Shown here in pieces: positions 1-18,698 of a DNA stretch of 64,000 bases. This DNA comes from a virus: positions 43,026 to 107,025 of the IMG/VR virus record IMGVR_UViG_3300036945_000814. One strand, given 5' to 3'. The translations under genes were made by a program, and so were the position numbers. Numbering within the stretch: position 1 is the stretch's first letter; the number at the start of each line of letters is the position of its first letter. A model generated the notes under the pieces. That model was not told where the DNA came from and did no database searches. It worked only from the letters and a program-made list of their open reading frames with translations.

Positions 1-3000
1 CCGGTCCCGGCGGAGGCGGGCCGGGCGCGCGCACCGCGGACGAGCACAAGCAGCAGGCGGCGGCCACGGACGCTGTCGCCGACAAGCACGAGGCGGCCGG
101 AAACACCAAGCTGGCGACGGTGTACCGCACCGCCGCTGACGCATCACGCAAGGCAGCGGCCTCGGCCCCGGCGAAGCCCGGCGCGGCGCCTGCGGCGCAC
201 GATGACGACGTGTTCGCACCGATGGGATCGGCCACGAAGTCTCTGTCGGCGGTGTGGGATCGGTTGTCCGCGTGGCACCCGTCGCCCATGTGGGCGGGCG
301 AGGACATCGGCATGAGCTTCGGCCACCTTCTGAGCAAGGCGATGGGCGTCGAGCAGGCCGGGCACAAGTACATCAAGCGCACAGCCAAGGCCGGCGGCGG
401 GTACGACTACGTCTACGCCGACGAGCCCCACAGCAAGGAAACGCTCAAGGGTGCGCCCATCGGGTCGACCTTGACGGCGCTGCACAATGGATCGTCGGCG
501 ACGTACACGAAGAAGGGCAAGGACGACTGGCACGGCGCCACCGGCGGCCCGATCTCGTCGGGATGGTTCGTGGGCAAGCCCGGAATGCTCACGCACGGCC
601 CCGCACACCCCGAGCCCGTCCACGCGCCGGCGCCGGCGCCCGTCGCAGCTCCGCCGGCACCGAAGCCCACGGCCTCGAAGCCTGCCGGCAAGCCCGTGCA
701 GGGCAGCCTGTTTGACATGCTGACGGCGCCCGCCCCGGCGGCCGAGCGCCCCAACAACTTCGAGACGATGCCCGACAAGCCGGCGGCGTCACCGATGGCG
801 GAGGCCGTGAAGGAAGCCGAGAAGCAGCCGGCGACGTTCGAGGTGCAGGCCGCTGCGGCCATCGACGACGCGAACGCCGCCGACGACCGCGGCGACGAGG
901 CCGCCCACCGCGAAGCAAGCAAGCGCCTCGCCGAGATCCGATCTGCGGCCGCCGAGGCCGAAAAGCCCGCAGCGCCCGAGCGCGACCGCCCCAACAACTT
1001 CGTCACCATGCCGGATCCCGAGCCCGGCGAGGCCAAGCCGAAGGCGCCGTCGGCCGCCGAGAAGACGAAGCGCGAGAAGTTCGAGGAAGCCAAGGCCAAG
1101 GCCGGCGCAGCCTCACCGATGGCCGAAGCGACGAAGGAAGCCACCAAGCAGCCCGCCGACGTGAGCGGCGCGTGGAAGCTCACCTACGACGCGGAGGCGG
1201 AAGACGCGGAAGAGGCCAAGATCAGCGAGCGCCACGCGAAGTTTCTGGAGGACAAGAAGAAGGCCCTCGCCGTCGCCGAACGCGCTCAAAAGAGCGCGCA
1301 GCACAGCATCGACTACGACAAAGAGCACTTCAAGATGAAGCGCGACGGCGTGCCGTGGGCCGCGAAGCCGACGCAGCTCAAGTCGCTGCAACTGCGCACC
1401 GCAGAGCTGGCGCACGCCAAGATGGATCTTGAGTACTCCACGCAGCGTTTTGCAGGCGCCGCCAAAGAGCGAGCGGAGCAGCGCGCCACCCGCAAGGCCG
1501 CCGCGGAGCGCCATGTGCGTGAAGCCCCGGAGCGCACGAAGGTCGCAGCCGCGGCCCGCGAGCGCATCGCCGCCGAAGAGGCACGCCAGAAGGCGGCCCG
1601 GCTCGTGATGACCGAGTCGACGAAGACCTCCCGCCAGCGCGAGCGCGAGACGGGTGAGCACATCGCCGCTTCGGCAAAGGACCGCTCAGACGAACGTCGC
1701 ATGATCACGACGGGCGACCTTGGATCGATGACGTTCTCCGACGCGCACCGTCTCGTGAACAAGCGGAACGCGATGCCGGTCTACGGCGCCGACGAGTTCC
1801 AAGCCAAGGGCGCGAGCCCCGGCGCGGCCCACATGGGCCTCGCGCTGGCGAACCTCATCGCGCCGTCGCCGCCCGAGGACAGTGACGACGCCCGCCGCCG
1901 GTACCTTGAGGGCATCCGCCTCGTGCATGGCGTGCTGGACAGCGCGAACACCGTCGCCGACTACGCCGAGGCGCGCAAAGAGCTTGCGGCCATGCACAGC
2001 GGCGACAACGTCCCGAAGACGGAGATCCATTCAGCCGTCAAAAAGACGGCTGACGAAAAGGCGGCTGACGTCAGAAAATACCAAGCGGACTACCGCGCTT
2101 GGCAGTCCTCCCACAGCGGCACTCGCCCCGAGTCGCCGCAGGACTATCACGGCATCACCACCTACCCCGGAAACTACATCCGCGAGGTGTTGACGCCCCG
2201 TGTGAAGGCGCAAGATCCAGACCTTGAGGTCGGCTACGAGTACGTCGATTCTGGCGGCGCCGGTGAGCGTCTGTCGTTCTTCACCTATTCCAAGTCGAGG
2301 AAAGAGGCGATGCGCAAGACCATCGACGCCCTCGGCAAGAGGTTCGTCGATCATGTGGTCGGCGACGGGAAGGTCTGGAACGACGCGAAGGCCAAGGCGC
2401 AGGAAGCCGAAGACATGGGCCTTGCCGGGTGGGATCACCTCGACAAGACCGACGAGGAAAAGGCACGAGCGCGGGAAGCCACCAAAGCCGAGAAGGCGAA
2501 GCTGGCGGAGAACGAGAGTGGCAGCGGCAAGGAAACCAAGCTCCGCTGGCGCCGGTCGATCTCGAAAAAGCCCGCCGTGATCGGCGCCAAGGTCACGATC
2601 ACAGACTCGGACCCCGAGCGGTTCCGCAAGACCTTCAACTTCCGTGGCGAGCAGCCCGGCGAGGCCATCCCCGACGCCGAGCTGAATCACCACCGCAAGT
2701 ACGCCGAAATGGCGTTCCACGACCTCGCCGACGTGCTCGGCATCGAGCCCCGGCAGGTGTCGATGAACGGTCGGCTCGCGATGGCGTTTGCCGCGCGCGG
2801 CAAGGGCGGAGCGATGGCCCACTATGAGCCGGCGGAAAAGGTCATCAACGTCACCCGGTTCGCAGGTGCCGGTACCGTCGCCCACGAGTGGGGGCACTTC
2901 ATGGACAACATCGTCGCCGAGCTGCACCGAGGTGGGTCCACCAAGAGCGCCGTGTACGCATCCGCGGGTGAGGGCGAGGGGATGCCGGCGGAGCTTGCCG

Positions 3001-3593
3001 CGGCCTACGCGAAGTTCAACGCCGCGCTGAAAGAGCCGAACCCCAAGACGATCGAACGCTTGAAGAAGGATCACGCCGACCTCGACAAAGAGTACGAGGA
3101 CACGCGGAAAATGCTGAGAGAACACCCCGCGAACACGAGGGCCGACAAGACACCCGAGCAGCGCAAGGCCGACGTGGACAGCTACAACGTGATCGTCAAG
3201 AACCTTGGGCACATTTCCACGCAGCAAAAGCTCATCCAAAACTTCCTGCGCAACCCGACGTCGGACTACATGCACGACGCCATCGGCCGCGACGGCGGAA
3301 GGCGCGGCAAGTATTGGTCGAACCCGCAGGAGCTTTTCGCCCGCGCCTTTGAGAGTCATGTGCAGCACAAGCTCGAAAGCCAAGGCCGGCGCAACAGCTA
3401 CCTCGTCGACGGCGCTGTCGGCCCCGGCAGCCCCTACCCGCAGGACGATGAGCTGTCGAAGATCCACGGCGCGATCGGTGGCATCATCACGGCCATTCAC
3501 GGCGCCAAGCTCTTCGAGAAGGCCCTCAAGGCGCTATCGTCTGTCCCGCTGACGGCGCGGCGGCGCGGCCCCAAGCTCGTGATCGCCGCTTAG
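1..3593 (+). CDS. Large polyvalent protein, 5'-truncated; low-complexity N-half, C-terminal zincin-like metallopeptidase (HEWGH) plus LPD1-like domain; probable capsid-internal/ejected protein
   Basis: The frame is open from nt 3 to the window edge upstream of the 120 call. Motifs: SMNGRLAMAFAARGKGGAMAHYEP...GAGTVAHEWGHFMD and YWSNPQELFARAFESHV, typical of phage/plasmid polyvalent proteins. Confidence 0.8.
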   Translation, partial: GPGGGGPGARTADEHKQQAAATDAVADKHEAAGNTKLATVYRTAADASRKAAASAPAKPGAAPAAHDDDVFAPMGSATKSLSAVWDRLSAWHPSPMWAGEDIGMSFGHLLSKAMGVEQAGHKYIKRTAKAGGGYDYVYADEPHSKETLKGAPIGSTLTALHNGSSATYTKKGKDDWHGATGGPISSGWFVGKPGMLTHGPAHPEPVHAPAPAPVAAPPAPKPTASKPAGKPVQGSLFDMLTAPAPAAERPNNFETMPDKPAASPMAEAVKEAEKQPATFEVQAAAAIDDANAADDRGDEAAHREASKRLAEIRSAAAEAEKPAAPERDRPNNFVTMPDPEPGEAKPKAPSAAEKTKREKFEEAKAKAGAASPMAEATKEATKQPADVSGAWKLTYDAEAEDAEEAKISERHAKFLEDKKKALAVAERAQKSAQHSIDYDKEHFKMKRDGVPWAAKPTQLKSLQLRTAELAHAKMDLEYSTQRFAGAAKERAEQRATRKAAAERHVREAPERTKVAAAARERIAAEEARQKAARLVMTESTKTSRQRERETGEHIAASAKDRSDERRMITTGDLGSMTFSDAHRLVNKRNAMPVYGADEFQAKGASPGAAHMGLALANLIAPSPPEDSDDARRRYLEGIRLVHGVLDSANTVADYAEARKELAAMHSGDNVPKTEIHSAVKKTADEKAADVRKYQADYRAWQSSHSGTRPESPQDYHGITTYPGNYIREVLTPRVKAQDPDLEVGYEYVDSGGAGERLSFFTYSKSRKEAMRKTIDALGKRFVDHVVGDGKVWNDAKAKAQEAEDMGLAGWDHLDKTDEEKARAREATKAEKAKLAENESGSGKETKLRWRRSISKKPAVIGAKVTITDSDPERFRKTFNFRGEQPGEAIPDAELNHHRKYAEMAFHDLADVLGIEPRQVSMNGRLAMAFAARGKGGAMAHYEPAEKVINVTRFAGAGTVAHEWGHFMDNIVAELHRGGSTKSAVYASAGEGEGMPAELAAAYAKFNAALKEPNPKTIERLKKDHADLDKEYEDTRKMLREHPANTRADKTPEQRKADVDSYNVIVKNLGHISTQQKLIQNFLRNPTSDYMHDAIGRDGGRRGKYWSNPQELFARAFESHVQHKLESQGRRNSYLVDGAVGPGSPYPQDDELSKIHGAIGGIITAIHGAKLFEKALKALSSVPLTARRRGPKLVIAA

Positions 3594-3595
3594 GC

Positions 3596-3640
3596 GTCTC
3601 ACGGTTGACACTACGAATGGAGCGCCTACAATGGTTCGCA
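3596..3640 (+). promoter_or_regulatory. Sigma70-type promoter, probably leaderless
   Basis: GTCTCA-CGG-TTGACA(3605-3610)-N16-TACAAT(3627-3632)-7 nt-ATG(3640); no SD before that ATG. Confidence 0.75.
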
Positions 3641-6600
3641 TGACCACACACGACACCATCGAAGACGCTTCCTTCGGTTTGCTGCTCAAGGCCGACATCG
3701 ACGACGCCCTCGACGATCTCGAAAAGGCTTTCGGGTCGGAGCGGGCCGGCCACAAGTACAGCTCCCGCCGACGCAACGCGAAAGGCGAGTGGGAGTACGA
3801 GTACGCCACCGACAAGACGAAGGCGCACGCGCAAATGGCGTTCACCTTCGCCGCGGCGCACGGCACCCCCGAGCAGCAGGATCGCGCCCTCGACGTGCTC
3901 AAGCGCGTCGAGCCGGACAGGTGGCCCGACCACGTCCACGCGGCCAACGTCGCGCACGAGGCCGCGGTCATCCACGCGGCGAACGTCGCCCACGAAGCGG
4001 CCGCCCGACCCCTGCCACCATCGCCAGCGCACGAGCACAGCCCCCCGGCCGCCGCCGCGCCCCCTGCCGTCGTGAGGTTCACGCAGGGCGAGCCCAAGCC
4101 CGCCGTCGCCGCGGCCCGTGCGCTGGATGCCTCCCGTGCGAGCCTGATCCGCGCTGGCATCGGCCTGCGCGCCAACGCAGAAGAGAAGACCCCTATCGAG
4201 GCCGTGGCCGGCCGCGCGGCCGCGCTTCGCAGCTCCGCCTCGTCGCTTTTCAATGAGTCGATCCGCATGGGCATCGTGAACGACGACCCGCGCACCGCGC
4301 GGAAGTTCACGGCCGAGGAACATCGGGCGCTGGCCGCCGCGCACACCGCCCTCTTCGACGAGTTCCGCGAGCTGTACGCGCGCTCGATGACGATGCGCAT
4401 TCGCCCGCCCTCCGGCATGACCGCCGCCGACGCCGATGCGCTCCGCTCCCAGCTCGAACGCGACTTCAAGGGGCACGCCAAGCTCGCTCAAGCCCACAAC
4501 GACGCCGCCAACGCGGCGTCGGGCAAGCCCGCACCCGCGGCCGCTGTGCCGCTCGTGGTCGCGCCTGTGGCGACTTCGGTCGCTCCGGCGCTGGACGCCG
4601 GCCCGGTGCAGCTCATGGACGCCGCCGCCCGCCTCATCGCCGAGCGTGCGAGCGGCGCGCCGCCGGCGTTCAAGGCCGTCGACAACAACCGCGTCACCAT
4701 CGGTGGCGTCAAGATGATCGTGCAGGGTGGCTTCCTCGGCGACGCTCCCGCGCACCGCGCGTGGGCGGAGACGGCCGGCACGTTCTCGGCCGACGCGCAG
4801 CACTTCGACGGCGGCCGGGCCTACCGCGTCGCCACCGAGGCGGAGCGTGTGGCCGCCGTGGCGATGATCCCGCGTCTCCGCGGCTCCGTGAACGTCAACG
4901 CGCCCGCACCGGCCCCTGCCCCGGCGCCCGTCGTCGCCGAGCCCGTGCGCCCCGTCGACGACTTCACCGGCGCGTTCAGGGCGCTGAGTGACGGCAGCGG
5001 CGCCGAAGAGATCGTGACGCTCCCGTCGGGATCCAAGATCGGGCTGTCCTACGTCAGCGGACAGGCCAAGGCGCGCCCCGTCGGAGGCGGCATCGGCCGC
5101 AAATGGGATGCGACCGCGACGAAGCGCGCCCTCGCCGCCTTCGAGGCCAAGGTCGCCGCCCTCGGCCCCGCGTGGCACGCCGCCCACAACGCCATGTACG
5201 GCGTCGCCGCCGCCCCGACGCCGCTCGTGGTGGCGCCCGTGGAGACGGCCGCGCCGAAGCGCAAGCGCGCCAACAACTTCGAGACGATGCCCGACGGCGA
5301 CAGGCCCAACAACTTCGACACGATGCCCGAGGAGATCAAAGACCCGTCGCCGCGCGCCACAAAGATCCGAGAAAACCGCGAAGCTCGCGAAGCCGAAGCC
5401 GCGTTGGAAGCCGGAGCCGAGCGACTGACGGGCGAAGAACGCCACGCCGCCCTGACCCGCATGGGCCAACACTTGCACGAGGTGCAGGACTTCCGGGCCG
5501 GCAAAGACGACACGGGCATGAGCGGCGCCGACATGCTGACGTGGCGCCGATCGACCACCGCACCCCGCAAGGCCAGCGTCCTCCGCAAGTACCGCCGCCA
5601 GCTCGTCGAGAGTTTCGGCGACCTCTACTTCAAGGCCGGGCTGCACGAGAAGGAGCCGATCCCCAAGGGGCACGTTCCTGCCGTCGGCGAATGGACCGAG
5701 CGCGGCGGGCTCGTCATCAAGGCCGACGGCTACCTCGGGACGAAGTTCAACGCATGGAAGAACCTGCTCAAAGAGCACGGCTTTCGCTGGAATGGATCAC
5801 GCGGCGACGAAAGCGCCGACGGGATGCACGCAGAGAAGGCGGCGCTGCTCGACATCCCCGGCTTCATCGAGGCGGCGAACAAGATCGGGATCCATGTCGA
5901 GATCCCCGAGAAGCCCGAGGTCGCCCTCGATGCGCCAGCGGCGGCCAACGAGCCCGAGGCGCCCCTGCCCACGCCCGAGCGGCCGTCGGCGGATCGCCCG
6001 ACGACCACCGAGGACACGCAGCGGGTCATCAACGCCATTCGCGCCAAGCAGGGCCAGCGCGGCACCGTCGCCGTCACCGTGAAGCCCGACGGCAAGTTTG
6101 CTTTCTACGCCGTCGACTACCGCAAGACCGAGGTGCCCGGCTCGTTCAACCACATCATGTCGAACAAGAACGGGCAGATCACCGGGCTCATGGAGGTCGA
6201 CTCCAAGGACGCTTTCTCGCGCACCACCTACGACGCCGCCCTCGTGACCGAGGCGCTTGGCAAGCTCCGCGACGCCAACCCGACCTTCCATTTCTACATC
6301 GACCCGAAGGCCGCCGCCGCCATCGACAAGGCCGGCGCCGACAAGGCCGCAGCCGAGAAGCCGATCCCAGAAGTCGAGGCCCTGCTTGCCGACGGCTTCG
6401 CGCTCAAGCCCTACCAGAACGCGATGGTGCGGTTCCTCGACAGCAACGACGGCAACGCCATCGTCGGCGACGAAATGGGCCTTGGCAAGACGCTGCAATC
6501 GCTCGCGTGGGTGGCGAAGAACAACAAGAAGGCCATCGTCGTCGTCCCCAAGGTCGTGCGCCGCACTTGGATCGAAGAGGCGCACAAGTTTTTCCCCGGA

Positions 6601-7962
6601 CACTTCAACGCGAAAGAGCTGCGATCCAAGGATCTGCTCACGAAGAAGAAGGCCAAGGCCGGCAAGGCCGACGCCGGCGGCCTCTCGTTCATCGACGAGC
6701 TGATGGCAACCGACAGCCCGATGGATCTCACGGGCAAGAACCTCGTGACGGTCAACTACGAGTCGCTTGAGAAGTTCATGCCCTACCTCAAGGCCGCCGG
6801 GTTCGACACGATCATCGTCGACGAATCGCACCGCGCGAAGAACCCGAAGGCGAAGACGACGCAGGTGATCCAAGCCATCGCGAAGACGATGAAGCATCGC
6901 ATCCTCATGTCCGGCACCGCGGTCAAGAACGGCAAGGATGAGCTTTTCACGCAGCTCGAAATGGTGAAGCCCGGCCTGTGGGGCTCGGCGAAGGAGATCA
7001 AGTTTTCCACGCATGGCGCTGCGTGGAACAAGATGCGGGACCACTACCTCGCGCGATCCAAGAAGAACGTGCTCAAGGATCTCCCCGAGAAGACGACCAC
7101 GATCAGCCTGCTCTACGCCCCCGGCGCGCCGGACATCGGCAAGATGAAAGAGCCGACGCCGCCACCGGCGAACGCCACCGCGAAGCAGATTGCGGCCTAC
7201 GAAAAGGCCGCCGAAGAGTGGGAATCGTGGATGGAAGGGGCCGCCGACGGCGACGGCATCAACGAGGACATCGGCGATCTCATGGACGGCGGGTCGTCGA
7301 TCGGCGAGTACAGCCGCGTCCGCGGCCAGCTCGCGCTGGCGAAGGTCGACGGCACCGTCGACATGGTGCAGGAGATCCTTGATAGCTCCGACAGCAAGGT
7401 GCTCGTGTTCACCGAGTCGGTTGCCGCGGCGAAAGCCATCGCCGAAAAGCTCGGCAGCGAGGCGATCCTGCACTACGGGCAGCAGAGCGACGACAAGCGC
7501 GAAGACGCGAAGAAGGAGTTTCAGCGCGAGGGATCCCCCAAGCGCGTGTTCGTCTCGACCCGCCCGTCGCTGGCCGTCGGCGCCACGCTCACGGCCGCCG
7601 ACAAGGTCGTGTTCAACGACCTCCCGTGGACGGCCGCCGACGTGCGCCAAGCCGAGGACCGCGCGCACCGCGTGGGCCAGAAGAACGCCGTCAACGTCTA
7701 CTGGAACGTCGCCGAGGACAACAAGTTCGACGAGAACGTCTCCGCCATCCTCCGCCGGAAGTACGACCTCTCGAAGAAGATCAACGAGGGGCAGCAGCTT
7801 TCGCCCGAAGAAAAGGCGTGGATGAGCAAGCCCGTCACCATGCGCGAAGTCATGGATCGCATCAAGGGCAAGCCCTCCGGCCCGCCCGAGCCCAAGATCG
7901 AAAAGAGCGCCAAGGCGCAGCTCCGCGACATGACCCGCGCGCTGATCAAAGCGGCAAGCTAG
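3640..7962 (+). CDS. Polyvalent protein with C-terminal SNF2/SMARCAL1-like SF2 ATPase
   Basis: LKPYQ, GDEMGLGKT (Walker A), IIVDESH (DExH), MSGT, QAEDRAHRVGQ at ~6400-7780; long Ala/Pro-rich N-terminal part. Start moved from 3631 to 3640 on promoter spacing. Confidence 0.85.
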   Translation: MTTHDTIEDASFGLLLKADIDDALDDLEKAFGSERAGHKYSSRRRNAKGEWEYEYATDKTKAHAQMAFTFAAAHGTPEQQDRALDVLKRVEPDRWPDHVHAANVAHEAAVIHAANVAHEAAARPLPPSPAHEHSPPAAAAPPAVVRFTQGEPKPAVAAARALDASRASLIRAGIGLRANAEEKTPIEAVAGRAAALRSSASSLFNESIRMGIVNDDPRTARKFTAEEHRALAAAHTALFDEFRELYARSMTMRIRPPSGMTAADADALRSQLERDFKGHAKLAQAHNDAANAASGKPAPAAAVPLVVAPVATSVAPALDAGPVQLMDAAARLIAERASGAPPAFKAVDNNRVTIGGVKMIVQGGFLGDAPAHRAWAETAGTFSADAQHFDGGRAYRVATEAERVAAVAMIPRLRGSVNVNAPAPAPAPAPVVAEPVRPVDDFTGAFRALSDGSGAEEIVTLPSGSKIGLSYVSGQAKARPVGGGIGRKWDATATKRALAAFEAKVAALGPAWHAAHNAMYGVAAAPTPLVVAPVETAAPKRKRANNFETMPDGDRPNNFDTMPEEIKDPSPRATKIRENREAREAEAALEAGAERLTGEERHAALTRMGQHLHEVQDFRAGKDDTGMSGADMLTWRRSTTAPRKASVLRKYRRQLVESFGDLYFKAGLHEKEPIPKGHVPAVGEWTERGGLVIKADGYLGTKFNAWKNLLKEHGFRWNGSRGDESADGMHAEKAALLDIPGFIEAANKIGIHVEIPEKPEVALDAPAAANEPEAPLPTPERPSADRPTTTEDTQRVINAIRAKQGQRGTVAVTVKPDGKFAFYAVDYRKTEVPGSFNHIMSNKNGQITGLMEVDSKDAFSRTTYDAALVTEALGKLRDANPTFHFYIDPKAAAAIDKAGADKAAAEKPIPEVEALLADGFALKPYQNAMVRFLDSNDGNAIVGDEMGLGKTLQSLAWVAKNNKKAIVVVPKVVRRTWIEEAHKFFPGHFNAKELRSKDLLTKKKAKAGKADAGGLSFIDELMATDSPMDLTGKNLVTVNYESLEKFMPYLKAAGFDTIIVDESHRAKNPKAKTTQVIQAIAKTMKHRILMSGTAVKNGKDELFTQLEMVKPGLWGSAKEIKFSTHGAAWNKMRDHYLARSKKNVLKDLPEKTTTISLLYAPGAPDIGKMKEPTPPPANATAKQIAAYEKAAEEWESWMEGAADGDGINEDIGDLMDGGSSIGEYSRVRGQLALAKVDGTVDMVQEILDSSDSKVLVFTESVAAAKAIAEKLGSEAILHYGQQSDDKREDAKKEFQREGSPKRVFVSTRPSLAVGATLTAADKVVFNDLPWTAADVRQAEDRAHRVGQKNAVNVYWNVAEDNKFDENVSAILRRKYDLSKKINEGQQLSPEEKAWMSKPVTMREVMDRIKGKPSGPPEPKIEKSAKAQLRDMTRALIKAAS

Positions 7963-7992
7963 AGTAGATCCGTTCACCCCCGAGGACCGCCC

Positions 7993-10251
7993 ATGAGCAC
8001 CAACGAAGCCACCGCCCTCTTGAACGACTCGCCGCTGCTCAAGTCGGACGACGGCCACAAGTACGTCAAGCGTGAGGGGATGCCCGGCGCCTACAAGTAC
8101 ACCTACGCCGACGGCAGCACCGGCCACACCGAGCACAAGCCCACGTTTCAGCTCGGCGCCGCGGCGCATCAACAGGGCCTCTTCGGCGCCAGCTCCTACG
8201 AGAAGAAGCCGGCGAAGCCGAAGGCCCCCGATCCCTTGGCGCACCGGCAGGTCGATATGTTCGCGCCGAAGCCGGCAGCCGCCACAGCGCCCGCGCCCGC
8301 GCCCGCGCCCGAGCCCGCGTCGAAGTTTGACGAGGTCGTTTCAGCCGCCTACACGCAGCGCGCCCGCGAGGCCGGCGCTGCCTCGGCCCATGCTCGCGAA
8401 ATGGATCAAGCCGGCTACCACGGAGGCATCAGCAACGCCCACAGGCACGCCGCTTCCGCGCATCGTCGAGCCGGCGAGGCCGCCATCGCCCTTGGTCACG
8501 GCGCCAACACCGCCATGCACGGCAAGCAGATGGCGCACCACGAGAAGCAGGCGGATCTCGACGACGACATCGCCGCACGCCACGCCGCAACGCGCAGCGG
8601 TGCCGCAAAGGAGGCTTCCGACCGCGTCATGGCTATCGCCGACAAGGCGAAGAAGACGACGATGGTCGACACGCCCGCGGGGCCGCGTGAGTCCACGCCG
8701 GGCGGGCTCAAATGGTACGGCGACAAGCCCCACAACCCGGAGGCGCTGGCCGCGGCGCGTGAGGCTTACGGCAGCGCCAAGTCCGAAGGCCGCAGCGACA
8801 AGCTGGCCCACAGCAAGGCGTCGAAGGCCGCGCAGAAGCACCTCGGCGGCGTCACCGGCGCGTGGGATCACGCGACGCACGCTCAAGAGCTGCACGATCA
8901 CGCGAACGGGAACCGGCACGAGATCCCCGGCGGCGCCGACCGCGCAGGGCCACCGCCCCGTGCGCCCGCGAAGAAGAAGTCCCCGAAGGCGCAGGCCACG
9001 CACGCGGCCAAGGTCGCCGACGCCGCTTCGGCGAAAGAAAACGCCGCCGATCACGCGCACGACATGGGATCCAAGGCGACCACCCTTTCCACGGCCGCCC
9101 ACCGCCTTTCCAACGCCGGCGGCGACATGGGAAGCGCGAACCACCAAGCCGCGCACGAGGCGCACAAGGCCGCCGCCGCTGCCAACCGCGAGGCCGCCTC
9201 GGCGTTCCAGCAGCCGGGCGCCAGCGTGAGCATTGCAGGCAAGTCGTTCTCGTCGCTGCACGAGGAGCGCGCGAAGGCGCACGACGAGAAGGCCGGCGAT
9301 CACTGGCGCGAGGCGGTCAAGGCGCGCTCCGACGAAGAGGGTGAGCCATTCAGCCAAGCCGCGACGCACAAGGTCGACGGCACGAAGAAGACGGATCTCG
9401 ACAAGCTGCACGAAGGTGTGGCGGACCTCAAGCCATCCGCCATGCGCAGCGACGGGCACTTCACGCGGGCTGCCGACAAGTTCAAGGCGCTGCGCGACCA
9501 CATCCACGAGAAGGTCGGCGCCCATCCCGCGCACGCGCACGCGAGCAAGGCGTTCACCCTCGCCAACACCGCGGCGCAGTCGTCCGGCAGCTACGACGTC
9601 AAGACGCGCCGCGAGCACATGGAAGGCGCGCAGCAGCACGCGCAGAAAGCGATCGACGCGATGAAGGGCATGGGCAAGAGCATGGATCACGAGGTCGGAA
9701 TCTCCCGCTTCCAAGACCGCTCCGCCGGCCGTCCCGCCGCCGGCGGCGTGTACGACGGGCTCGGCTCCGGCATGGTCGATCCCACCGTGGATCGCCCGCG
9801 CTACGCCGGCCGCGCCCCCAATCAGGTGATCGCCGTCGGCGTCGCTGGCGACAGCAACGACCGCAACACCTTCGCCTACCAGAAGGGCCGGCAGTCCGGC
9901 GCCACGTTGGATCTGGCGAAGTCGGCGATGATCGGCGCCGTCAAGGACGGCTACCGGATGCAGCTCATCGCCGTCGCCGACGCCAACCCCGTTGCCTCGC
10001 TCATCATGCGCGGCCGCGTGGAAGGCGAGCGCCCGATGGTGCCCGCCGAGCTGCGCAAGAGTGTGCAGCTTTCCGCGCCCGACCCCGACGCCGTCGTCGC
10101 CTTCGCCGCGGCTGCCCTCAAGGCTGCCAGCGACCGCAACCCGCAGCTTCGGGAAGGGCTCTCGCGCCTCGGCGTCTCCCGTGCCACCCTGTACGCGACC
10201 CTTGAGGCGCTGGCCCTCACACCGGCAGGGATGACCGCCGGCAACCGATAG
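7993..10251 (+). CDS. His/Ala-rich hypothetical head-associated protein
   Basis: 752-aa ORF with SD-like GAGG; carries the same LLKS..GHKY tag as the two preceding genes; lies directly before portal. Confidence 0.7.
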   Translation: MSTNEATALLNDSPLLKSDDGHKYVKREGMPGAYKYTYADGSTGHTEHKPTFQLGAAAHQQGLFGASSYEKKPAKPKAPDPLAHRQVDMFAPKPAAATAPAPAPAPEPASKFDEVVSAAYTQRAREAGAASAHAREMDQAGYHGGISNAHRHAASAHRRAGEAAIALGHGANTAMHGKQMAHHEKQADLDDDIAARHAATRSGAAKEASDRVMAIADKAKKTTMVDTPAGPRESTPGGLKWYGDKPHNPEALAAAREAYGSAKSEGRSDKLAHSKASKAAQKHLGGVTGAWDHATHAQELHDHANGNRHEIPGGADRAGPPPRAPAKKKSPKAQATHAAKVADAASAKENAADHAHDMGSKATTLSTAAHRLSNAGGDMGSANHQAAHEAHKAAAAANREAASAFQQPGASVSIAGKSFSSLHEERAKAHDEKAGDHWREAVKARSDEEGEPFSQAATHKVDGTKKTDLDKLHEGVADLKPSAMRSDGHFTRAADKFKALRDHIHEKVGAHPAHAHASKAFTLANTAAQSSGSYDVKTRREHMEGAQQHAQKAIDAMKGMGKSMDHEVGISRFQDRSAGRPAAGGVYDGLGSGMVDPTVDRPRYAGRAPNQVIAVGVAGDSNDRNTFAYQKGRQSGATLDLAKSAMIGAVKDGYRMQLIAVADANPVASLIMRGRVEGERPMVPAELRKSVQLSAPDPDAVVAFAAAALKAASDRNPQLREGLSRLGVSRATLYATLEALALTPAGMTAGNR

Positions 10252-10259: not shown

Positions 10260-12020
10260 GTGGACCTCATCAAGCCCGAGCAGATCCGCGCCATGATGGC
10301 GACGGCCATCGAGTCAAAGCTCTCGCAGGCCGTGCATGACGCGACCGGCGAGGCCATCGAGCGGCTTGTCGAGGCGCAGATCCAAGATCAGCTCGCCCCG
10401 ATGATGGGCGGGCTGCTCGCCAAGGGCAACGGCGGCGACCCCGGCCCGCGCCCCGGCCAGCTCTCGCAGACGACGGCCGCCGACCCCAAGGGCCTGCTCT
10501 ACGATCCGTTCACGGCCCTCGACCAGATGGGCTTTCGCGAGCGCCCGAGCGCCATCACGTTCCGCACGCTCGGCGAAATGGCCCGGCGGGTGCCGCCGTT
10601 CTCGGCGTACCTGCAAACGCGGTTGAACCAGATGGCCGCCTTCTGCGAGCCGCAACCCGACGAGCACAGCGTCGGGTTCAAGTTTGTCCTCAAGGACAAG
10701 CAGGCGAACCTGTCGAAGAAGATGCAGCGCCGCAACGACGAGCTGACCCGGTGGCTCTCGGCGATGGGCGACCCCGAGCTGAACATCAAGCGCGACAAGT
10801 TTGGCGCGTGGATGCGCAAAAGCATGTGGGATTCCCTCGTCTACGATCAGATGACGACGGAGATCGTGCCCCGCAAAGATGGATCGGCGCCGTCGTACAT
10901 CCGCGCGCTCGACGCCGCCACGATCCGTGTTTCCGACACGCTCGACGAGGTCGACTACATCGACGAGACGATCCAATACGTTCAGATTTACGACGACACG
11001 ATCATCGCGGAGTTCAAGGAACACGAAATGATCTTCGGGATCCGAAACCCGCGCAGCGACATTCGCTACAGCGGCTACGGAATGCCCGAGCTGGAAATGC
11101 TGATCAGCATCGTCACCGCGCTCCTTTGGGGCATCGACTACAATGCCAAGTTTTTCTCGCAGGGCTCGGTCGCGAAGGGCCTGCTCAACTTCAAGGGCGC
11201 CATCCCCGAGAAGGAGCTGATCGCGTTCCGCCGTCAGTGGTACTCGATGATCACCGGCGTGCAGAACGCTTGGCGCACTCCCGTCGTCAACGCGGAAGAC
11301 GTGCAATGGCTCAACATGCAGTCGAGCAACCGCGACATGGAGTTTGCGGCTTGGATCGACTGGCTGCTCAAGGTGACGTGCGCCGTCTGCCAGATCGCCC
11401 CCGAAGAGATCGGGTTTCAGTTTGGCAACGCGGGCCAGACCTCGACGATGTCGGAGGGCTCGCAGGCCGACAAGCTGGCGCAGAGCAGGGACAAGGGCCT
11501 CATCCCTCTCGCCAAGTTTGTCTGCGAACAGCTCAACGACAAGGTGATCGACAAGCTCGACAACCGCTTCCGGTTGGAGTTTGCCGGCGTGAACGCACGC
11601 ACCGCCGAGGCGTTGATCGACTTGCAGACCAAAGAGGTCAAGACCGTCAAGACCGTCGACGAGGTCCGCAAAGAGCGCGGCGAAGATCCATTGCCCGACG
11701 GGCTCGGCGCCGTCATCCTCGACTCGGTGTGGTTGCAGTTCATGCAGGCGAAGAACGCCGAGAAGCAGCAACAGCAGCAGGCCGGAGGCGGCGACGGCTA
11801 CGGCGCCCCGCCCGGCTCCCCGCAGATGGACGGCGCGCCCCCGTGGGAAGGCGACGGCACCGATCAGCAGGAGCAACCGGACGATGCCGGCCAAGGCGGC
11901 GACGTTGACGCGGGAGGCGCACCGCCCGACGATGTGCAGAAGAGCGGACGCAGCGGCTTCGGCCTTTCGCCGGCCCAACAGCGCGCGCTCCGCACGTTGG
12001 ATCTTGAGGTCGATCTGTGA
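10260..12020 (+). CDS. Portal protein (SPO1/Twort-type)
   Basis: IRNPRSDIRYSGYGMPELEM...YNAKFFSQG...KGLL, NAWRTPVV, NRDMEF...W, IAPEEIGF; position before MuF/protease/capsid. Confidence 0.9.
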   Translation: MDLIKPEQIRAMMATAIESKLSQAVHDATGEAIERLVEAQIQDQLAPMMGGLLAKGNGGDPGPRPGQLSQTTAADPKGLLYDPFTALDQMGFRERPSAITFRTLGEMARRVPPFSAYLQTRLNQMAAFCEPQPDEHSVGFKFVLKDKQANLSKKMQRRNDELTRWLSAMGDPELNIKRDKFGAWMRKSMWDSLVYDQMTTEIVPRKDGSAPSYIRALDAATIRVSDTLDEVDYIDETIQYVQIYDDTIIAEFKEHEMIFGIRNPRSDIRYSGYGMPELEMLISIVTALLWGIDYNAKFFSQGSVAKGLLNFKGAIPEKELIAFRRQWYSMITGVQNAWRTPVVNAEDVQWLNMQSSNRDMEFAAWIDWLLKVTCAVCQIAPEEIGFQFGNAGQTSTMSEGSQADKLAQSRDKGLIPLAKFVCEQLNDKVIDKLDNRFRLEFAGVNARTAEALIDLQTKEVKTVKTVDEVRKERGEDPLPDGLGAVILDSVWLQFMQAKNAEKQQQQQAGGGDGYGAPPGSPQMDGAPPWEGDGTDQQEQPDDAGQGGDVDAGGAPPDDVQKSGRSGFGLSPAQQRALRTLDLEVDL

Positions 12021-13137: not shown

Positions 13138-16100
13138 GTGGCGCTGTGGACTGCCGATCAGCTTGCGAAAGTCCGCGCCGTCATCGCGCGGCACCATGCG
13201 GCGATCACCATCGCCATCTTCGGACACAAGGCCCTGCCCGACGACCTCGTCAAAGACCTCCGGGCCTCCGGCATCCCCGTGCCCACCGGCCCGCAGCTCA
13301 TCGACGACGCCTTCACCTACGGGCAGCTCGTTGCCCTCCTTCGCGATCCGAAGCTCGCCACCAAGAGCCCCGCCGAGATCGCCGAGCTTGTGGCCGCCCG
13401 CAAGATCCCGTTGCAGCTCACGCCGTCTGAGAAGGCCGCCGTCGAAGTCGCGCGCACGCACGCCGGGCAGTACGTCGTCGGCCTCGGCACCCGCGTCGCG
13501 GGGCAGGTCATGGCCGCCGTCACCGGCGCCGAGGCCAACCTCACCCCCGAGCGCATGGTCGAGATCATTCAGGACAAGACCGCCGGCAACCTCGCCCGGC
13601 GCGAGACGATCGACAGCCTGAGATCCGACCTCGGGCACGCGATGGGCAACTGGACCCGCGACTGGCAGCGCATCGCGATGACCGAGTCGAACAACGCGAT
13701 CCAAGAAGGCACCGCGGCCACCATCGAGAAAGAGCACGGCGTCGACGAGCTTGTGTCGAAGATGCCGCGCCCCGACGCCTGCCCGGACTGCAAGCGCCTG
13801 TACCTCCGCGGCGGCGAGCCCATCATTTTCAAGCTCTCCGAGCTGCGTGCCAACGGCAGCAACGTCGGCCGAAAGAAGCGCGACTGGAAGCCGACCATCG
13901 AGGCCGTCCACCCGTGGTGCGGATGCGTGCTCGTGCGAATCCCCGCGGGCATGGTCTGGGAGGACGGCGAGCTTGTCGTCGACAAGGCGGAGAAAAGCCA
14001 AGCGGGTATTGAAATGCCCGCCCGGCCCGCATTTCAATACCCGCTGCGGAAAGCCGCCCGCAAGCTCCACGGTCGCCTCACGTTTGCCGGGATGCCGATC
14101 AGCATCGAGAACCGCCGGGGCTCGTTCCGCCATTGGTTCGACCCGGTCGCCAAAGAGCACGGCAAGACCAAGGTGCTTTTCCCCTACGGCTACATCCGGC
14201 TCACCGAGGCCGCCGACGGCGACCACGTCGACGTCTACGTCGGCCCGCTCAAGACGGCGCCCAACGTCTACGTCGTCCACCAACGCAAGAAGAAACCGGA
14301 TGGATCTTTCGGCGGCTACGACGAGGACAAGGCCATGCTCGGTTTCCCGTCGGCCAGCGCGGCGAAGCGGGCCTACCTCGCGCACTACAGCGACCCGAGA
14401 TTCTTCGGGGCGATGACGACCATGACCGTCGCCGAGTTCAAGGTAAAGCTCGTGGAGAACCGGGGGCGAAAGATCACGAAGGCATGGCGCGAGCCGACGG
14501 CGCTCGTGATCGACATGCTGGCGAAGAGCTATGCCCCGTGCGTGCGCTGTGGCGAAATGTCGAAGGAGTCGAGCAGCGACGGCGCCGAGCCGTGCTGGAC
14601 GTGTCGCAAGGCGCTCGAAGCCGCCGGTACGCCCTACGTTCGCGCCGGGTGGAAAGACGGCGTGGAGCTGGCGAAAGCCGGCGGCCCGTACATCGGCCCC
14701 AAGGGCGGCAAATGGGCCGACCCCGAGCACACCGTTGCGTGGCAAGAGCCCGGCGGCGTCGAGAGCCTGCCCCACCTTGAGGACGAAAAATGGGATGACG
14801 GCACCGTCGTTCGCTGGCGGCAAAGCCCGTTCGTTCACGCGCCGCCCCGGTCAAAGCCGCAGCTCCCGTCGTCAACGCCAACCTCGATCGAGCACGTTCC
14901 CCTCGACAAGCTGCACGCAACGCAGAAGCGCGTCACCGAGGGGGGCGTGCAGAAGTACCTCGACAAGCCGTTGAACGCGGCCGCCGACGACAAGCTCGAT
15001 CTCCCGCTCGTCACCGTCGACAAAGACGGCAAGCACTTCATTCAGGACGGGCACCACCGTCTCACGGCCGCCAAGCTCCGCGGCGAGGCGTCCGTTCCCG
15101 TCCGGGTGCAGCGAGAAAAGGCCGAGGAGAAGAAAACGCACGAACCGCTGGCGCCCGACTACGAGCCGAAGGTCGGCGACGAGCACGCGATCCCCGGCCC
15201 GCACGGCATGGCCGCGTTCACGGCGCGCATCGAGCACGTCGGCGACGACCATGTGCGGATCTCGCAGAACCACGGCGACGAGCGTCGCGGCACAGGGGCT
15301 CACGGTACAAGGGTGCCGAAAGCGGCGGTGTCGCACTTCGTCAACGACCTCCGCGGCGTCGTTCACGGCCCGCCGTCGAGCGACCCGCGCGTGCAGGCGG
15401 TACTCGACGGCAAGGCCGAGCACCTTGGCAAAGGCGACGACGGCATCGCCTTCCGCGTCGGCGACACCGTCGTCAAGGCGTCGACGACGGTGCCCTACCA
15501 ACCGTTCAACGAAAACTACTTGACGCCGGCGACGGCGGCCGAGCGCATGGTCGAGCAGGTGAACACGTCGAACGCGATGCACGCCGACGGCGTGCCCGGC
15601 ATCATGCGTTCCGAGCTTGTCCACAACGGCGACAAGGCGTTTCAGATCAAGCCCTACGTCGAGATCCCCGACAAGCTCACCCGCGAACAACTCGACAGCG
15701 TCGCCGATTCAGTGCTCAAGGCGCACGCCGCCGGCTACACGTTCAACGACGAGATCCAAGTAGGCGTTCACGAGGGCAAGCTCGTTCACTTCGACACCGG
15801 CAAGGCGGCGAAGGCGCCCGACGAGAAGCGCCTCAAAGAAAGAGCCGAAGACGACGAGGAACGCCTCAAAGACCTCTTCGCCAAGCACGGCGAGAAGTTC
15901 CAGACGACGAAAGAGAAGCACAACCCGCTCATCGAGTGGGAGGAAATGGCGTCGCGAGATCCAAAGAAGATGACAGATGCCGAGCGCAGCAAGCACGCCT
16001 CGCTTCTGTGGATGCACAGCCTCAAGGTGAAGTCGTTTCGCGATCGGGCTGATCCCGTCGACAAAGACTTCTACGACGTGGTCTACAACAACCAAGAGAT

Positions 16101-16596
16101 CGAAGACGCCATCAATCGGTTCAAGTCGCCGATCCGAGAAGCCATCGACGTGCTCAAGTCTGCGTTCGATTCCATGAGCGCCGGTGAATCCATCGAGCAG
16201 CTTGGCCGCTCGACGTCGCGACTCGGTATGATGAGCTGGCGTGGAAACGAAGACTCACCCCGGCCCGAGCGCCCCGCGGACATCGTCGGGATCACCGACG
16301 ACATGGGGCTCACCGTCAAGGGGCGGAAGAAGCGAAAGAAGAAGCACGCCGAGGACAAAGCCGACGCGCGACGCAGCCGGTTGTCGCCCGCAGACCGCTT
16401 CGCCGCCGCCAAGCGGATGCCCAAAAAGGACGCCGTGAAGCCCCTCGCCCCCGACGCGCTCAAGGAAGCCCGTGAGCAGTCGCGAGACGCCGTGGAAGCC
16501 AAGCGCGAGCGCATCCGCGACGACCTCGCTCGGCGGCAGGCGAACAAGCCCCCGATGGATCCCATCCGCATTGCGCGAGCGAAGGGAGAATCGTGA
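13138..16596 (+). CDS. MuF-family head morphogenesis polyvalent protein: MuF + inorganic pyrophosphatase-like + Zn ribbon + ParB/Srx-like + kinase-like domains
   Basis: MuF: RDWQRIAMTESNNA..CPDC..HPWCGC. InPase-like: ISIENRRGS..YGYI..ADGDHVDVYVGP..YDEDKAMLGF. CVRC..CWTC. ParB-like: PLDKLHATQ..IQDGHHRLTAA. Kinase-like: LGKGDDGIAF..VVK..HFDTG. Confidence 0.85.
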   Translation: MALWTADQLAKVRAVIARHHAAITIAIFGHKALPDDLVKDLRASGIPVPTGPQLIDDAFTYGQLVALLRDPKLATKSPAEIAELVAARKIPLQLTPSEKAAVEVARTHAGQYVVGLGTRVAGQVMAAVTGAEANLTPERMVEIIQDKTAGNLARRETIDSLRSDLGHAMGNWTRDWQRIAMTESNNAIQEGTAATIEKEHGVDELVSKMPRPDACPDCKRLYLRGGEPIIFKLSELRANGSNVGRKKRDWKPTIEAVHPWCGCVLVRIPAGMVWEDGELVVDKAEKSQAGIEMPARPAFQYPLRKAARKLHGRLTFAGMPISIENRRGSFRHWFDPVAKEHGKTKVLFPYGYIRLTEAADGDHVDVYVGPLKTAPNVYVVHQRKKKPDGSFGGYDEDKAMLGFPSASAAKRAYLAHYSDPRFFGAMTTMTVAEFKVKLVENRGRKITKAWREPTALVIDMLAKSYAPCVRCGEMSKESSSDGAEPCWTCRKALEAAGTPYVRAGWKDGVELAKAGGPYIGPKGGKWADPEHTVAWQEPGGVESLPHLEDEKWDDGTVVRWRQSPFVHAPPRSKPQLPSSTPTSIEHVPLDKLHATQKRVTEGGVQKYLDKPLNAAADDKLDLPLVTVDKDGKHFIQDGHHRLTAAKLRGEASVPVRVQREKAEEKKTHEPLAPDYEPKVGDEHAIPGPHGMAAFTARIEHVGDDHVRISQNHGDERRGTGAHGTRVPKAAVSHFVNDLRGVVHGPPSSDPRVQAVLDGKAEHLGKGDDGIAFRVGDTVVKASTTVPYQPFNENYLTPATAAERMVEQVNTSNAMHADGVPGIMRSELVHNGDKAFQIKPYVEIPDKLTREQLDSVADSVLKAHAAGYTFNDEIQVGVHEGKLVHFDTGKAAKAPDEKRLKERAEDDEERLKDLFAKHGEKFQTTKEKHNPLIEWEEMASRDPKKMTDAERSKHASLLWMHSLKVKSFRDRADPVDKDFYDVVYNNQEIEDAINRFKSPIREAIDVLKSAFDSMSAGESIEQLGRSTSRLGMMSWRGNEDSPRPERPADIVGITDDMGLTVKGRKKRKKKHAEDKADARRSRLSPADRFAAAKRMPKKDAVKPLAPDALKEAREQSRDAVEAKRERIRDDLARRQANKPPMDPIRIARAKGES

Positions 16597-16926: not shown

Positions 16927-17769
16927 TTGCAGGAATCAGACGCTCCGGCATTCAACTTCGACTTCGACATCGAAGTGTTCGAGAAGGCCGGCGTCGCTCC
17001 TGAGAAGGCGCGCCGCATCGGCGGCTTCGTGTCCACGAGCGCCCTCGACAAGCAGGGCGAGCGCGTCTTGCAGGAAGGGCTCGACTTTTCCCCGTTCCTG
17101 CAAGACGGGTGGTTCAACGACAACCACAGCAAGGCCACCGCCGACATCGTCGGCTTCCCCGAGACGGCCAAGCTCATCCGCAAGGGCGAGCGCCTGCCGA
17201 GCGGCACGTCGGCCGACAAGACCGGATGGTTCGTCGAGGGCTACCTCCTGCAAGGGCACCCGCCGAGCGACCGTATCTGGGAGCTGGCGAAGGCGTTGCA
17301 GAAGACGCCGCGGCGTCTCGGGTTCTCCGTCGAGGGCCGCGTCACGCAGCGGATGAACAAGGCCGGCGAGCCCATCGTCGCCCGCGCCGTCGTCAAAAAC
17401 GTCGCGGTCACCAACTGCCCCGTCAACAATCAGACGTCGCTCGAAGTGCTCGCCAAGAGCCTGAGCGCCATCGAAATGAGCAAGGCGCTTGAGGTCGGGC
17501 CGCCGCCCGGTCCCGCGAGCGACCCCGGCTCCATCCCCGCCGGCGTGCCCCTGTCGGGCATGGGCGCGGGCCGCGTGCTCATGCCTGAGTCGATCGGCGG
17601 CTACGCCGGCGCCTTCGGCAACCCCAACGGTGCGCAGCCCCGGAAGAAGAAGAAGAAGAAGCTCACCAAGAGCGCCGCGTTGGATCTCATTCACAGCCGC
17701 TATCCGGGCATCACCAACCACACGGCGGCGCGGATCTTCCGCTTCGCTGTCGCACACGCCTCTCACTGA
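16927..17769 (+). CDS. Prohead (maturation) protease
   Basis: IGGFVSTSALDKQGE..GLDF..GWFNDNH..LGFSVEG..VAVTNCPVN; AGGAGA SD with TTG start; lies between portal and capsid. Confidence 0.88.
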   Translation: MQESDAPAFNFDFDIEVFEKAGVAPEKARRIGGFVSTSALDKQGERVLQEGLDFSPFLQDGWFNDNHSKATADIVGFPETAKLIRKGERLPSGTSADKTGWFVEGYLLQGHPPSDRIWELAKALQKTPRRLGFSVEGRVTQRMNKAGEPIVARAVVKNVAVTNCPVNNQTSLEVLAKSLSAIEMSKALEVGPPPGPASDPGSIPAGVPLSGMGAGRVLMPESIGGYAGAFGNPNGAQPRKKKKKKLTKSAALDLIHSRYPGITNHTAARIFRFAVAHASH

Positions 17770-17789: not shown

Positions 17790-18698
17790 ATGGCGAAGAA
17801 GCACCCCACCCTCGACACCGAGCCCCTTTTCAAGAGCGACGACGGCGACCTCGACGACGAGCCCGGTATGCCCGAAGCCGAGGACGCCGACGAGGACGAC
17901 GAGGACGAGGACGGCGACGGCGTCGACGACGAGGAAGAGGAGCAGATGAAGTCGGATCTCACCGAGGACACGCTCATCAAGGCGCTCGACGAGATGGACA
18001 GCATCGCCGTCGCCGCGTCCAACGGAATCTCGCCGCGGGAGCAGGCCCTCGCCTCCAAGCTCGCGTCTGGCACCCCCCTCACCAAGTCGGAGCGTGCCGA
18101 GCTGGCCGCGGCCGGCGAACCGATGGCCAAAAGCCACAAGGAGTCTTTCGTGGAGAATCCGCAGATCGCGCAGGGTTTCGAGGTTTCCGAGTTCCTCGAC
18201 GCCGCGCTCACCAAGGTCGCCGAAGCCCTCGACACCAACCGCGAGGAAATGACCAAGTCCTTCGGCGAGGTCGGCGAGTTCAACCGCGCCCTCGCCAAGT
18301 CGCTCAACGCCCTCGGCGCCGTCGTCATCGCGCAGGACAAGAAGATCCGGCAGCTCGAAAAGAGCCTCGCCGGTGAAGCTCCCCGGCGCGTGGTCGAAGC
18401 GGCCCCCGCCAAGGGCGTCACCTCCTCGCGCAGCTCCGTCGGCCAGCGGGTCAACGACAGCGGCGGGATGCGCAAGTCGCAGGCCGCCGGCGGCGCCACG
18501 CTCACCAAGGGCATGATCCTCGACACCCTCGACGATCAGATCGCCAAGAGCGACGGCCAGCGCGGCGTGGTCGACGGCGTCGACCTCGTGCTCGAAAGCT
18601 CGCGCTACGAGACGACGCAGCTCCTCTCCCCCGACGCCATGCGCCTCGTCTGCAAGGCGCGCGGGATCGACCCCTCCACCCTCGGGCTGAACGGCTGA
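17790..18698 (+). CDS. Scaffolding protein
   Basis: Acidic N-terminus, helical, many hydrophobic-x-K-S sites; between protease and capsid. Confidence 0.75.
   Translation: MAKKHPTLDTEPLFKSDDGDLDDEPGMPEAEDADEDDEDEDGDGVDDEEEEQMKSDLTEDTLIKALDEMDSIAVAASNGISPREQALASKLASGTPLTKSERAELAAAGEPMAKSHKESFVENPQIAQGFEVSEFLDAALTKVAEALDTNREEMTKSFGEVGEFNRALAKSLNALGAVVIAQDKKIRQLEKSLAGEAPRRVVEAAPAKGVTSSRSSVGQRVNDSGGMRKSQAAGGATLTKGMILDTLDDQIAKSDGQRGVVDGVDLVLESSRYETTQLLSPDAMRLVCKARGIDPSTLGLNG

Follow-up and report, generated by a model that had tools for sequence, protein, structure and literature searches.

How giant anti-defence proteins are loaded into phage heads and divided there is known for few model phages (T4, P1 and phiKZ-like phages), each of which has its own solution. 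A 64,000-nucleotide stretch of viral DNA, hereafter the window (bases 43026–107025 of the 107,025-bp, 67% G+C contig of IMG/VR virus record IMGVR_UViG_3300036945_000814), raises the question of whether a single short peptide could mark such proteins for both steps. In this contig, three giant open reading frames (ORFs) between the terminase and portal genes, named ORF1, ORF2 and ORF3, each encode a peptide with the core HKY (the HKY tag) shortly after a lysine motif. The tag recurs in hundreds of protein clusters, the lysine motif is very probably the cleavage code of the head maturation protease, and the two together may form an encapsidation handle, which is the reading that we tentatively favour.

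A short cassette shared by three giant proteins

The tag lies at 360..422 in ORF1 (T1, GHKYIKRTAKAGGGYDYVYAD), at 3748..3813 in ORF2 (T2, GHKYSSRRRNAKGEWEYEYATD) and at 8053..8112 in ORF3 (T3, GHKYVKREGMPGAYKYTYAD), on the + strand like every other feature of the window described here. Each copy follows a φ-x-K-[AGS] motif (φ, hydrophobic), namely LSKA at 330..341, LEKA at 3718..3729 and LLKS at 8035..8046, the first a putative prohead-protease site with the cut after the lysine. The three peptides on which the initial annotation had based the tag are exact translations of 327–423, 3718–3813 and 8035–8112. In a six-frame scan the pattern GHKY...YxYxY occurred four times in the contig, always within the three giant genes between terminase and portal; the fourth copy, GHKYLRR...YRYIY, lies at genome position 40757, about 2.3 kb upstream of the window and likewise in ORF1. 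With two internal tags, at residues ~385 and ~1261, ORF1 has the layout of the cassette-type polyprotein that had been proposed for it.

In pairwise BLASTP, ORF1 and ORF2 align significantly in the tag module alone (E=2e-4). For the remaining pairs of ORF1, ORF2, ORF3 and the MuF-type head protein encoded downstream, no alignment reached significance, the best (E 0.03) falling outside the tag. When ORF3 homologues are aligned, the tag is kept while its flanks and its position in the protein diverge.

The consensus first drawn for the tag holds in its GHKY..R..YxYxY core, but the unit had been delimited too short. As revised here, it consists of a helix ending in φ-x-K, a residue [AGS], a linker of 2 or 7–8 residues (often xGxERxG) and a hairpin with the consensus HKY-φ-[KR]-R-x-G-x-P-G-x-Y-x-Y-x-Y, often followed by a third strand. 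The helix preceding the putative cut is short, often acidic and amphipathic, and the whole cassette spans ~40 residues.

The tag family spans a clade of uncultured phages

A profile built from 17 tags and searched against 1.84 billion protein cluster representatives retrieved 653 of them at E<=1e-3 and 73 at E<=1e-10. The search, suggested by the initial annotation, establishes the tag as shared beyond chance; the same result rules out a fortuitous resemblance between low-complexity sequences. In the 164 proteins examined there are 321 tag instances, 1–5 per protein, and 93 of the 321 begin at or before residue 50. Nine tags used as queries in a word-indexed search yielded 23 longer proteins with LPD1, RelA_SpoT, SNF2, InPase, ParB and other domains, and a degenerate DNA pattern for GHKYIKRT matched further IMG/VR contigs of 35–64% G+C.

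The carriers are diverse in function. A Pfam census of 54 of them found Zeta_toxin, Phage_Mu_F, DUF5661, ART-PolyVal, RelA_SpoT, LPD1 and ddrB-ParB, with Acb1/2H phosphoesterases, PBECR2, HD and PolyA_pol also among the domains; SNF2 and InPase proteins likewise bear tags. The presence of the tag on unrelated proteins, in one to five copies each and next to many different effector domains, agrees with its supposed portability. This domain set is the effector repertoire of the polyvalent proteins described by Iyer et al. 2017 (PMC5512222), where phage-encoded polyvalent proteins are argued to be likely packaged in the capsid.

Wherever genomic context is visible, tag proteins are encoded near portal or MuF genes, as the initial annotation had anticipated, and tag genes adjoin portal, MuF or protease genes in the related contigs L002, L005, L007, L010, L012, L013 and L015. 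L002 (portal 85% identical) keeps the three tags at the orthologous positions and has one more in its MuF protein, and the more distant L005 (portal 46% identical) has a tag at residue 362 of an ORF3-like protein. The tag proteins belong to a large clade of uncultured phages with contigs of 65–150 kb and a SPO1-like head module.

Searches of named collections placed the family outside current annotation. No Pfam, NCBIfam, PHROG or PDB-sequence entry covers the tag, the sole exception being a sub-threshold match to Arm-DNA-bind_1 considered below, and no published paper holding the motif was found. Searching the tags and a two-tag protein with tblastn against 50,697 phage records gave no match (one chance row, E=9), and the tags against 72,556 plasmids gave chance rows only. 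An Aeromonas plasmid row annotated as ‘helicase-related’ proved, when its sequence was read, to be no tag. The GHKYIKRT DNA pattern marked 9 stretches in 185,579 species genomes; the peptide was read in 7, and one is a true tag, on contig L107 (CAZNVR010000001.1, 103,553 bp) of an ‘uncultured Legionella sp.’ metagenome-assembled genome (MAG). The size of L107 matches that of these phages, so the contig probably comes from a phage and was binned with the MAG, and its presence in a Legionella MAG may hint at a host.

Conservation of the same peptide across genomes of 35–67% GC with different codons points to selection at the protein level. An origin of the tags as recent DNA repeats or recombination scars was rejected, since the same peptide over that range of base composition forces different codons.

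The lysine motif before the tag matches a putative maturation-protease code

The initial annotation had placed the tags directly behind a putative K[SA] cleavage site. We found [LIVMFYW]-x-K-[AGS] at most 16 residues upstream of 284 of 319 tags (89%), compared with 10.8% for randomly placed positions in these proteins. The spacing from the residue after the lysine to the histidine of the tag is bimodal, with one peak at 3 residues (n=108, e.g. LFKARPHKY) and another at 8–9 residues (n=105, e.g. LEKAxGxERxGHKY). Some tags stand without any site before them.

The same motif marks the head proteins themselves. Among the ~85 ORFs of the contig, φ-x-K-[AGS] is enriched in the head maturation protease (7 motifs vs 1.4 expected, z 4.9) and in the scaffolding protein (11 vs 1.3 expected, z 8.5), and the only further ORF flagged is 126 aa long with a single site. 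Enrichment in these two proteins fits a prohead-protease motif because both are digested at maturation. Three other tag-bearing phages of 43–64% G+C have the same scaffold and protease enrichment, and so do the scaffolds encoded beside 80 related major capsid protein (MCP) genes, where all 77 of 77 scaffold genes contain 9–22 sites vs 1–3 expected (z 6–13). The related MCPs also share an N-terminal [DE]-L-N-K-A-L-x-A-G near residue 30, which here reads NLNK|ALRSG (18845–18856).

Cultured SPO1 (L115, NC_011421 39000–47000) displays the same pattern in its scaffold (11 vs 1.3, z 9.2), in its protease (8 vs 1.6 expected, z 5.4) and in its MCP, which has DALNK|ALEAG close to the N-terminus; the putative code therefore extends to cultured Herelleviridae. 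Given the enrichment in scaffold and protease and the conserved site near the MCP N-terminus, the maturation protease of this head lineage very probably cuts at φ-x-K|[AGS], and the sites in front of the tags thus bear the statistical signature of a prohead-protease motif. A literature search for cleavage sites of SPO1-like heads found no data. If correct, the putative code could be read straight from scaffold composition across the SPO1-like head lineage.

Two side observations concern this motif. The first site of the scaffold (17826–17837, PLFK|SDDGD) is almost identical, as a heptapeptide, to the site before the ORF3 tag (PLLK|SDDGH). Upstream of the window, a DUF5661-like helical segment of ORF1 (EH...IA..HL.E.P.YY..L..MEKA; residues ~775–820 in L001, also present in P0172) terminates in the lysine motif, and few domains accompany the tag more often than DUF5661 (4/54 carriers).

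Because a strictly bimodal distance separates site and hairpin, and because the linker xGxERxG is conserved, the hairpin might be read as a device for the protease alone, that is, as an exosite ligand or a rigid stop that would ensure precise and efficient cutting at domain junctions and would have no later role. The tag also occurs together with the phrog_1028 maturation protease in 3/3 larger tag-bearing contigs tested. However, the main substrates (the scaffold, the protease itself and the MCP N-terminus) carry the motif without any hairpin, and some tags, as noted, have no preceding site. For known prohead proteases, T4 gp21 among them, recognition is by a short linear motif, which likewise counts against a need for docking, and we regard this explanation as improbable.

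Predicted fold and composition of the tag

Structure models were computed using AlphaFold2 with a 32-row alignment. For T1, the model consists of a low-confidence helix (predicted local distance difference test, pLDDT, 55–60) over the residues ending in LSKA, followed by a hairpin with strands at 25–30 and 36–40 (block-mean pLDDT 71–83). For the commonest class of tags (HKYIKRTGxPGNYxYWYKxPDGS...) three strands are predicted, with block-mean pLDDT of 73–85. The basic/aromatic β-hairpin that had been proposed from sequence is accordingly what AlphaFold2 predicts, in the form of a helix, a loop and a 2–3-stranded β-meander. Averaged over 18 residues, the tag has a net charge of +3.4 and 4.3 aromatic residues. 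In a register taken from the sequence pattern and not read off the model, the invariant lysine, the hydrophobic residue and the arginine of strand 1 would share a face with the three tyrosines of strand 2.

Fold comparisons were unproductive. With the three-strand model, Foldseek found no match in the PDB at E<=0.001, and VIA-align (wide) reached a best Z of 3.3, to generic propeller-blade meanders. A profile search of PDB sequences with the tag returned 0 matches, and an ESM Atlas feature search with the tag returned none. The structural neighbours in the ESM Atlas are PepSY-like helix-plus-sheet domains with TM-scores (by query) of 0.54–0.64, too short a match to mean much. A complex prediction of MCP, protease and tag, run without controls, gave no verdict (score 0.00) and is evidence neither way.

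The PepSY-like neighbours, and the joint conservation of helix and hairpin, are what one would expect if no cleavage took place at the site and if helix, linker and hairpin formed one stable domain, serving in oligomerisation or as a spacer and merely containing L-x-K-A. Against such a domain stand the low confidence of the helix prediction and the poor conservation of the helix, which is dispensable in many copies, as well as the over-representation of the same motif by 6–13 standard deviations in scaffolds. There is, in our estimate, little chance that the cassette is left intact in this way.

The composition of the hairpin bears on what we consider the main rival to an encapsidation handle, namely that the hairpin is a DNA handle. 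It would then bind the packaged genome or another polyanion, so that cargo is kept in the head after the scaffold leaves; the cargo would exit with the DNA, stay on the injected DNA and protect it in cis. Loading would then fall to a different element; the T4 targeting sequence suggests the helix before the cut as one possibility. The internal proteins of T4 are basic and DNA-associated once their targeting peptide has been removed, a precedent that counts in favour, as do the charge and aromatic content of the tag and the putative single face of lysine, hydrophobic residue, arginine and tyrosines. In phage P1, DarA-Hdf contacts DNA (PMC12810830).

A further point for DNA binding is a resemblance, at the level of a pattern, to the arm-binding domain of lambda integrase (PF09003). 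Over ~25 residues, YIRNNGYYCYRDPRTGKE of that domain compares with YIKRTG.PGNY.YWYKDP.TGK of the tag, the common pattern being Y-I-[RK]..G.Y.Y.[RK]-D-P-x-T-G-K, and a three-stranded meander is predicted for the tag. Yet the likeness is not significant: the Pfam model Arm-DNA-bind_1 scored E=0.072 and 13.6 bits, vs a cut-off of 22, on P0133, one of ~20 fragments scanned, and hhalign to the lambda Int arm domain with a 64-sequence profile gave E=0.058–0.071. The two also differ in that the arm domain has its helix after the sheet, whereas no conserved helix follows the tag. Homology to the lambda Int arm domain is thus unsupported by profile comparison and is retained as a lead only.

Other features sit poorly with a DNA handle. 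The tag in this genome is confined to head-region giant proteins, and in the census it is found on polyvalent-type effectors. Strand 2 of the window's own tags is acidic (EWEYEY, GYDYVY). A separate loading signal would be required, yet in some relatives the protein begins with the hairpin and has no helix in front of it (MRGHKY..., L015). We therefore consider DNA binding an unlikely primary role, while ranking it ahead of the other alternatives to an encapsidation handle.

A second tag in the MuF-type head protein

The initial annotation had pointed to an analogous segment in the MuF-type protein, where LAKA, again a φ-x-K-[AGS] motif (14668..14679), is followed by GGPYIGPKGGKWADPEHTVAWQEP at 14680..14751. 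This segment is the window's copy of a second tag type, GGP-YIGPKGGKWADPEHTVAWQEP, whose pattern including the preceding site is φ-x-K-[AGS]-GGP-[YF]-I-G-P-[KR]-G-G-K-W-A-D-x-x-H-T-x-x-W (the GGKW tag). Among the proteins examined, 12 have this tag, with 18 instances in total; HKY tags are present in 11 of the 12 as well, the twelfth being the window's MuF protein, and in the latter's own genome this tag occurs in the MuF protein only. Most GGKW tags are preceded by the same lysine motif at a spacing of 3, and the type is also found upstream of many related MCP genes. Because the MuF protein of L002, the contig with the 85% identical portal, has an HKY tag at the place corresponding to the GGKW tag, the HKY and GGKW tags appear interchangeable, in keeping with the analogy first drawn.

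A conserved small segment of ORF2, GGLVIKADGYLGTKFNAWKNLLKEHGFRWNG (5704–5796, residues ~692–722), is also present in three SNF2 homologues (P0014, P0015 and P0023). It shows a weak alignment to the GGKW region of the MuF protein and is possibly a third tag-like element or a degenerate one.

A candidate encapsidation handle on cargo units

Proteins cannot enter a capsid together with DNA through the portal, so giant proteins destined for the head need a signal for loading into the procapsid. The only shared element seen across ORF1, ORF2 and ORF3 is the cassette, which makes its hairpin a candidate for such a handle. The initial annotation had read the tag as a mature N-terminal signal that might act in DNA binding, portal docking or ejection order. 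We propose that the giant proteins are built into the procapsid, with the hairpin docking them to a conserved procapsid component such as the interior of the capsid shell, the portal or the scaffold. A cut after the lysine by the head maturation protease would then free each enzyme unit within the head; the unit would keep the hairpin as its new N-terminus and could exit together with the DNA at infection. The GGP-YIGPKGGKW... peptide of the MuF protein would be a second, interchangeable handle of the same kind, and polyvalent proteins would be strings of separately addressed cargo units. An encapsidation handle kept on the processed cargo units of polyvalent proteins is the function we favour for the cassette, at slightly less than an even chance of being right.

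Several observations weigh against this proposal. The giant proteins are not enriched in φ-x-K-[AGS] overall (11 motifs in ORF1 vs 9.7 expected); the motif is placed before the tags, but many further copies have no tag behind them. The first fragment of ORF1 has no tag, so the tag is not required by every fragment, and of the 10-kb stretches upstream of related MCP genes only some show tags, which means that the head module can do without them. MuF-domain proteins, which would be expected in the head by virtue of MuF itself, bear tags as well. The tag lies downstream of the putative cut and would be retained, whereas the T4 targeting sequence is removed. The net charge and the tyrosine ladder of the hairpin fit nucleic-acid binding equally well. 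Searches of phage records found no cultured tag-bearing phage, and the cleavage, the loading and the docking partner of the hairpin are proposals drawn from sequence.

The nature of the carriers, which are anti-defence or host-takeover enzymes, would also suit a module that acts only after injection, taking the effector to a target in the infected cell (for example the nucleoid, the sliding clamp, or DNA of the host or the phage), in which case the site would merely separate units. A peptide resembling the bacterial clamp-binding motif QL[SD]LF, Q-x-[GSD]-L-F-[GD], occurs 29 times in 23/164 tag proteins. In two contigs it follows the lysine site and leads directly into the HKY tag (L002:7275–7340, LKA-SQLGLFGG...; L005:8364–8430, LKA-QQLSLFGG...), and in the window matching peptides lie at 699–716 in ORF1 (QGSLFD) and at 8170–8187 in ORF3 (QQGLFG). 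The tag is, however, near-invariant in genomes of 35–67% GC, presumably from very different hosts, which favours a partner that is phage-encoded or universal, and we hold a purely post-injection role to be quite unlikely.

A stronger form of the favoured proposal is that the HKY cassette and the GGKW tag form a universal, self-sufficient address code of this large uncultured phage clade, in which ~30 residues would suffice to load any protein and the upstream lysine site would free it for injection. This seems doubtful to us, and less likely than the encapsidation handle as such. If it were true, the injected arsenal of thousands of uncultured phages could be read from sequence alone, foreign proteins could be loaded into phage heads, and polyvalent proteins would be strings of independently addressed cargo units. 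Short of that, a cassette that marks cargo units in hundreds of clusters would give a sequence rule for which proteins are injected and where they are cut. It would also be a compact candidate loading signal and a possible tool for placing chosen proteins in capsids.

Comparison with known head-loading systems

A functional parallel is the capsid targeting sequence that the internal proteins IPI–III of T4 carry and the prohead protease gp21 removes, a short, portable peptide next to a cleavage site, on proteins that enter the head and are later injected. The T4 signal is ~10 residues long, sits at the extreme N-terminus upstream of the cut and is discarded. The HKY hairpin, in contrast, stands 3 or 8–9 residues downstream of its putative cut, would stay on the protein, is in many cases internal and reaches 5 copies; it has no sequence similarity to the T4 targeting sequence. 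What resembles the T4 signal in position is the helix before the cut, which is weakly conserved.

In phage P1, giant anti-restriction enzymes are head-loaded and processed, with DarA and Hdf as the anchor and DarB and DdrB as the cargo. We know of no peptide tag shared among the Dar proteins, and we saw no homology of the HKY tag to DarA or Hdf. The P1 system differs in using dedicated adaptor proteins, and its Dar proteins are described as attached to the inner capsid surface and DNA (PMC12810830; PMC5512222).

The polyvalent proteins reviewed in PMC5512222 match the giant proteins here in size, in multi-domain architecture and in gene position, ORF1, ORF2 and the MuF protein adjoining the terminase and portal genes and containing LPD1, SNF2, InPase and a weak ParB-like match. 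In the wider carrier set the likeness extends to ART-PolyVal, ddrB-ParB, PBECR2, Zeta_toxin and RelA_SpoT. Processing by peptidase domains inside the polyvalent proteins has been proposed (PMC5512222), whereas the junctions described here bear the putative motif of the head maturation protease. Within the passages of PMC5512222 covered by a term search, no junction peptide of this kind turned up.

A processing motif on ejected proteins is also familiar from the giant phages phiKZ and SPN3US. Their motif is S/A/G-x-E, and propeptides are removed. To our knowledge, no conserved peptide is found at the mature N-terminus in these phages. Their prohead protease processes a large set of proteins inside the head at a simple motif (PMC10052503, PMC7411985), as is proposed here. 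What seems new here is a putative addressing and processing element that would lie after the cut, is repeated internally and is without sequence relation to the T4 or P1 signals.

Gene map of the head region

The genes are ordered TerL, ORF1, ORF2, ORF3, portal, MuF, protease, scaffold and MCP. ORF1 enters the window as its C-terminal 1196 aa (3..3593) and runs off the window start; the entire polyvalent protein has 2337 aa (genome 39605–46618), beginning 3420 bases upstream of the window, and has an LPD1 zincin-like domain at its C-terminus. ORF2 (3631..7962, 1443 aa) is an SNF2-family helicase with a long, low-complexity N-terminal half and the tag at residue ~40. ORF3 (7993..10251, 752 aa) has its tag at residue ~21 and matched no Pfam or PHROG family, so that no domain is recognised in it.

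The portal protein (10260..12020) is 35–39% identical to portals of SPO1-like Bacillus phages. The MuF-type giant head protein (13138..16596) combines a MuF-like N-terminus, an InPase domain and a weak ParB-like match, and its residues 23–270 match the MuF-region ORF of L015. Under a definition of polyvalent proteins that asks for at least two unrelated effector or enzymatic domains per giant protein, encoded amid portal–terminase packaging and head genes, the MuF protein qualifies with these domains, ORF1 with its 2337 aa and LPD1 zincin, and ORF2 with SNF2 and the long N-terminal region.

Downstream follow the head maturation protease (phrog_1028, 16927..17769), in which H67 and S134 are invariant across 30 homologues, the scaffolding protein (17790..18698) and the MCP (phrog_752, 18761..20200).

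Other short motifs in tag proteins

Two further peptides recur in the giant proteins. The sequence [RA]-x-N-N-F-x-T-M-P-[DE] is found four times in low-complexity linkers, at 747–776 and 987–1016 in ORF1 and at 5266–5295 and 5302–5331 in ORF2; the looser form [DN]-N-F-x-T-M-P is present in 8/164 tag proteins, mostly close relatives. ORF1 also contains an internal repeat, AAHDDDVFAP[IM]GS, whose copies lie ~214 residues apart, one at residues ~989–1005 upstream of the window and one at 198–230 of the window. The repeat may be another short linear motif, and ORF3 contains a similar peptide, VDMFAP.

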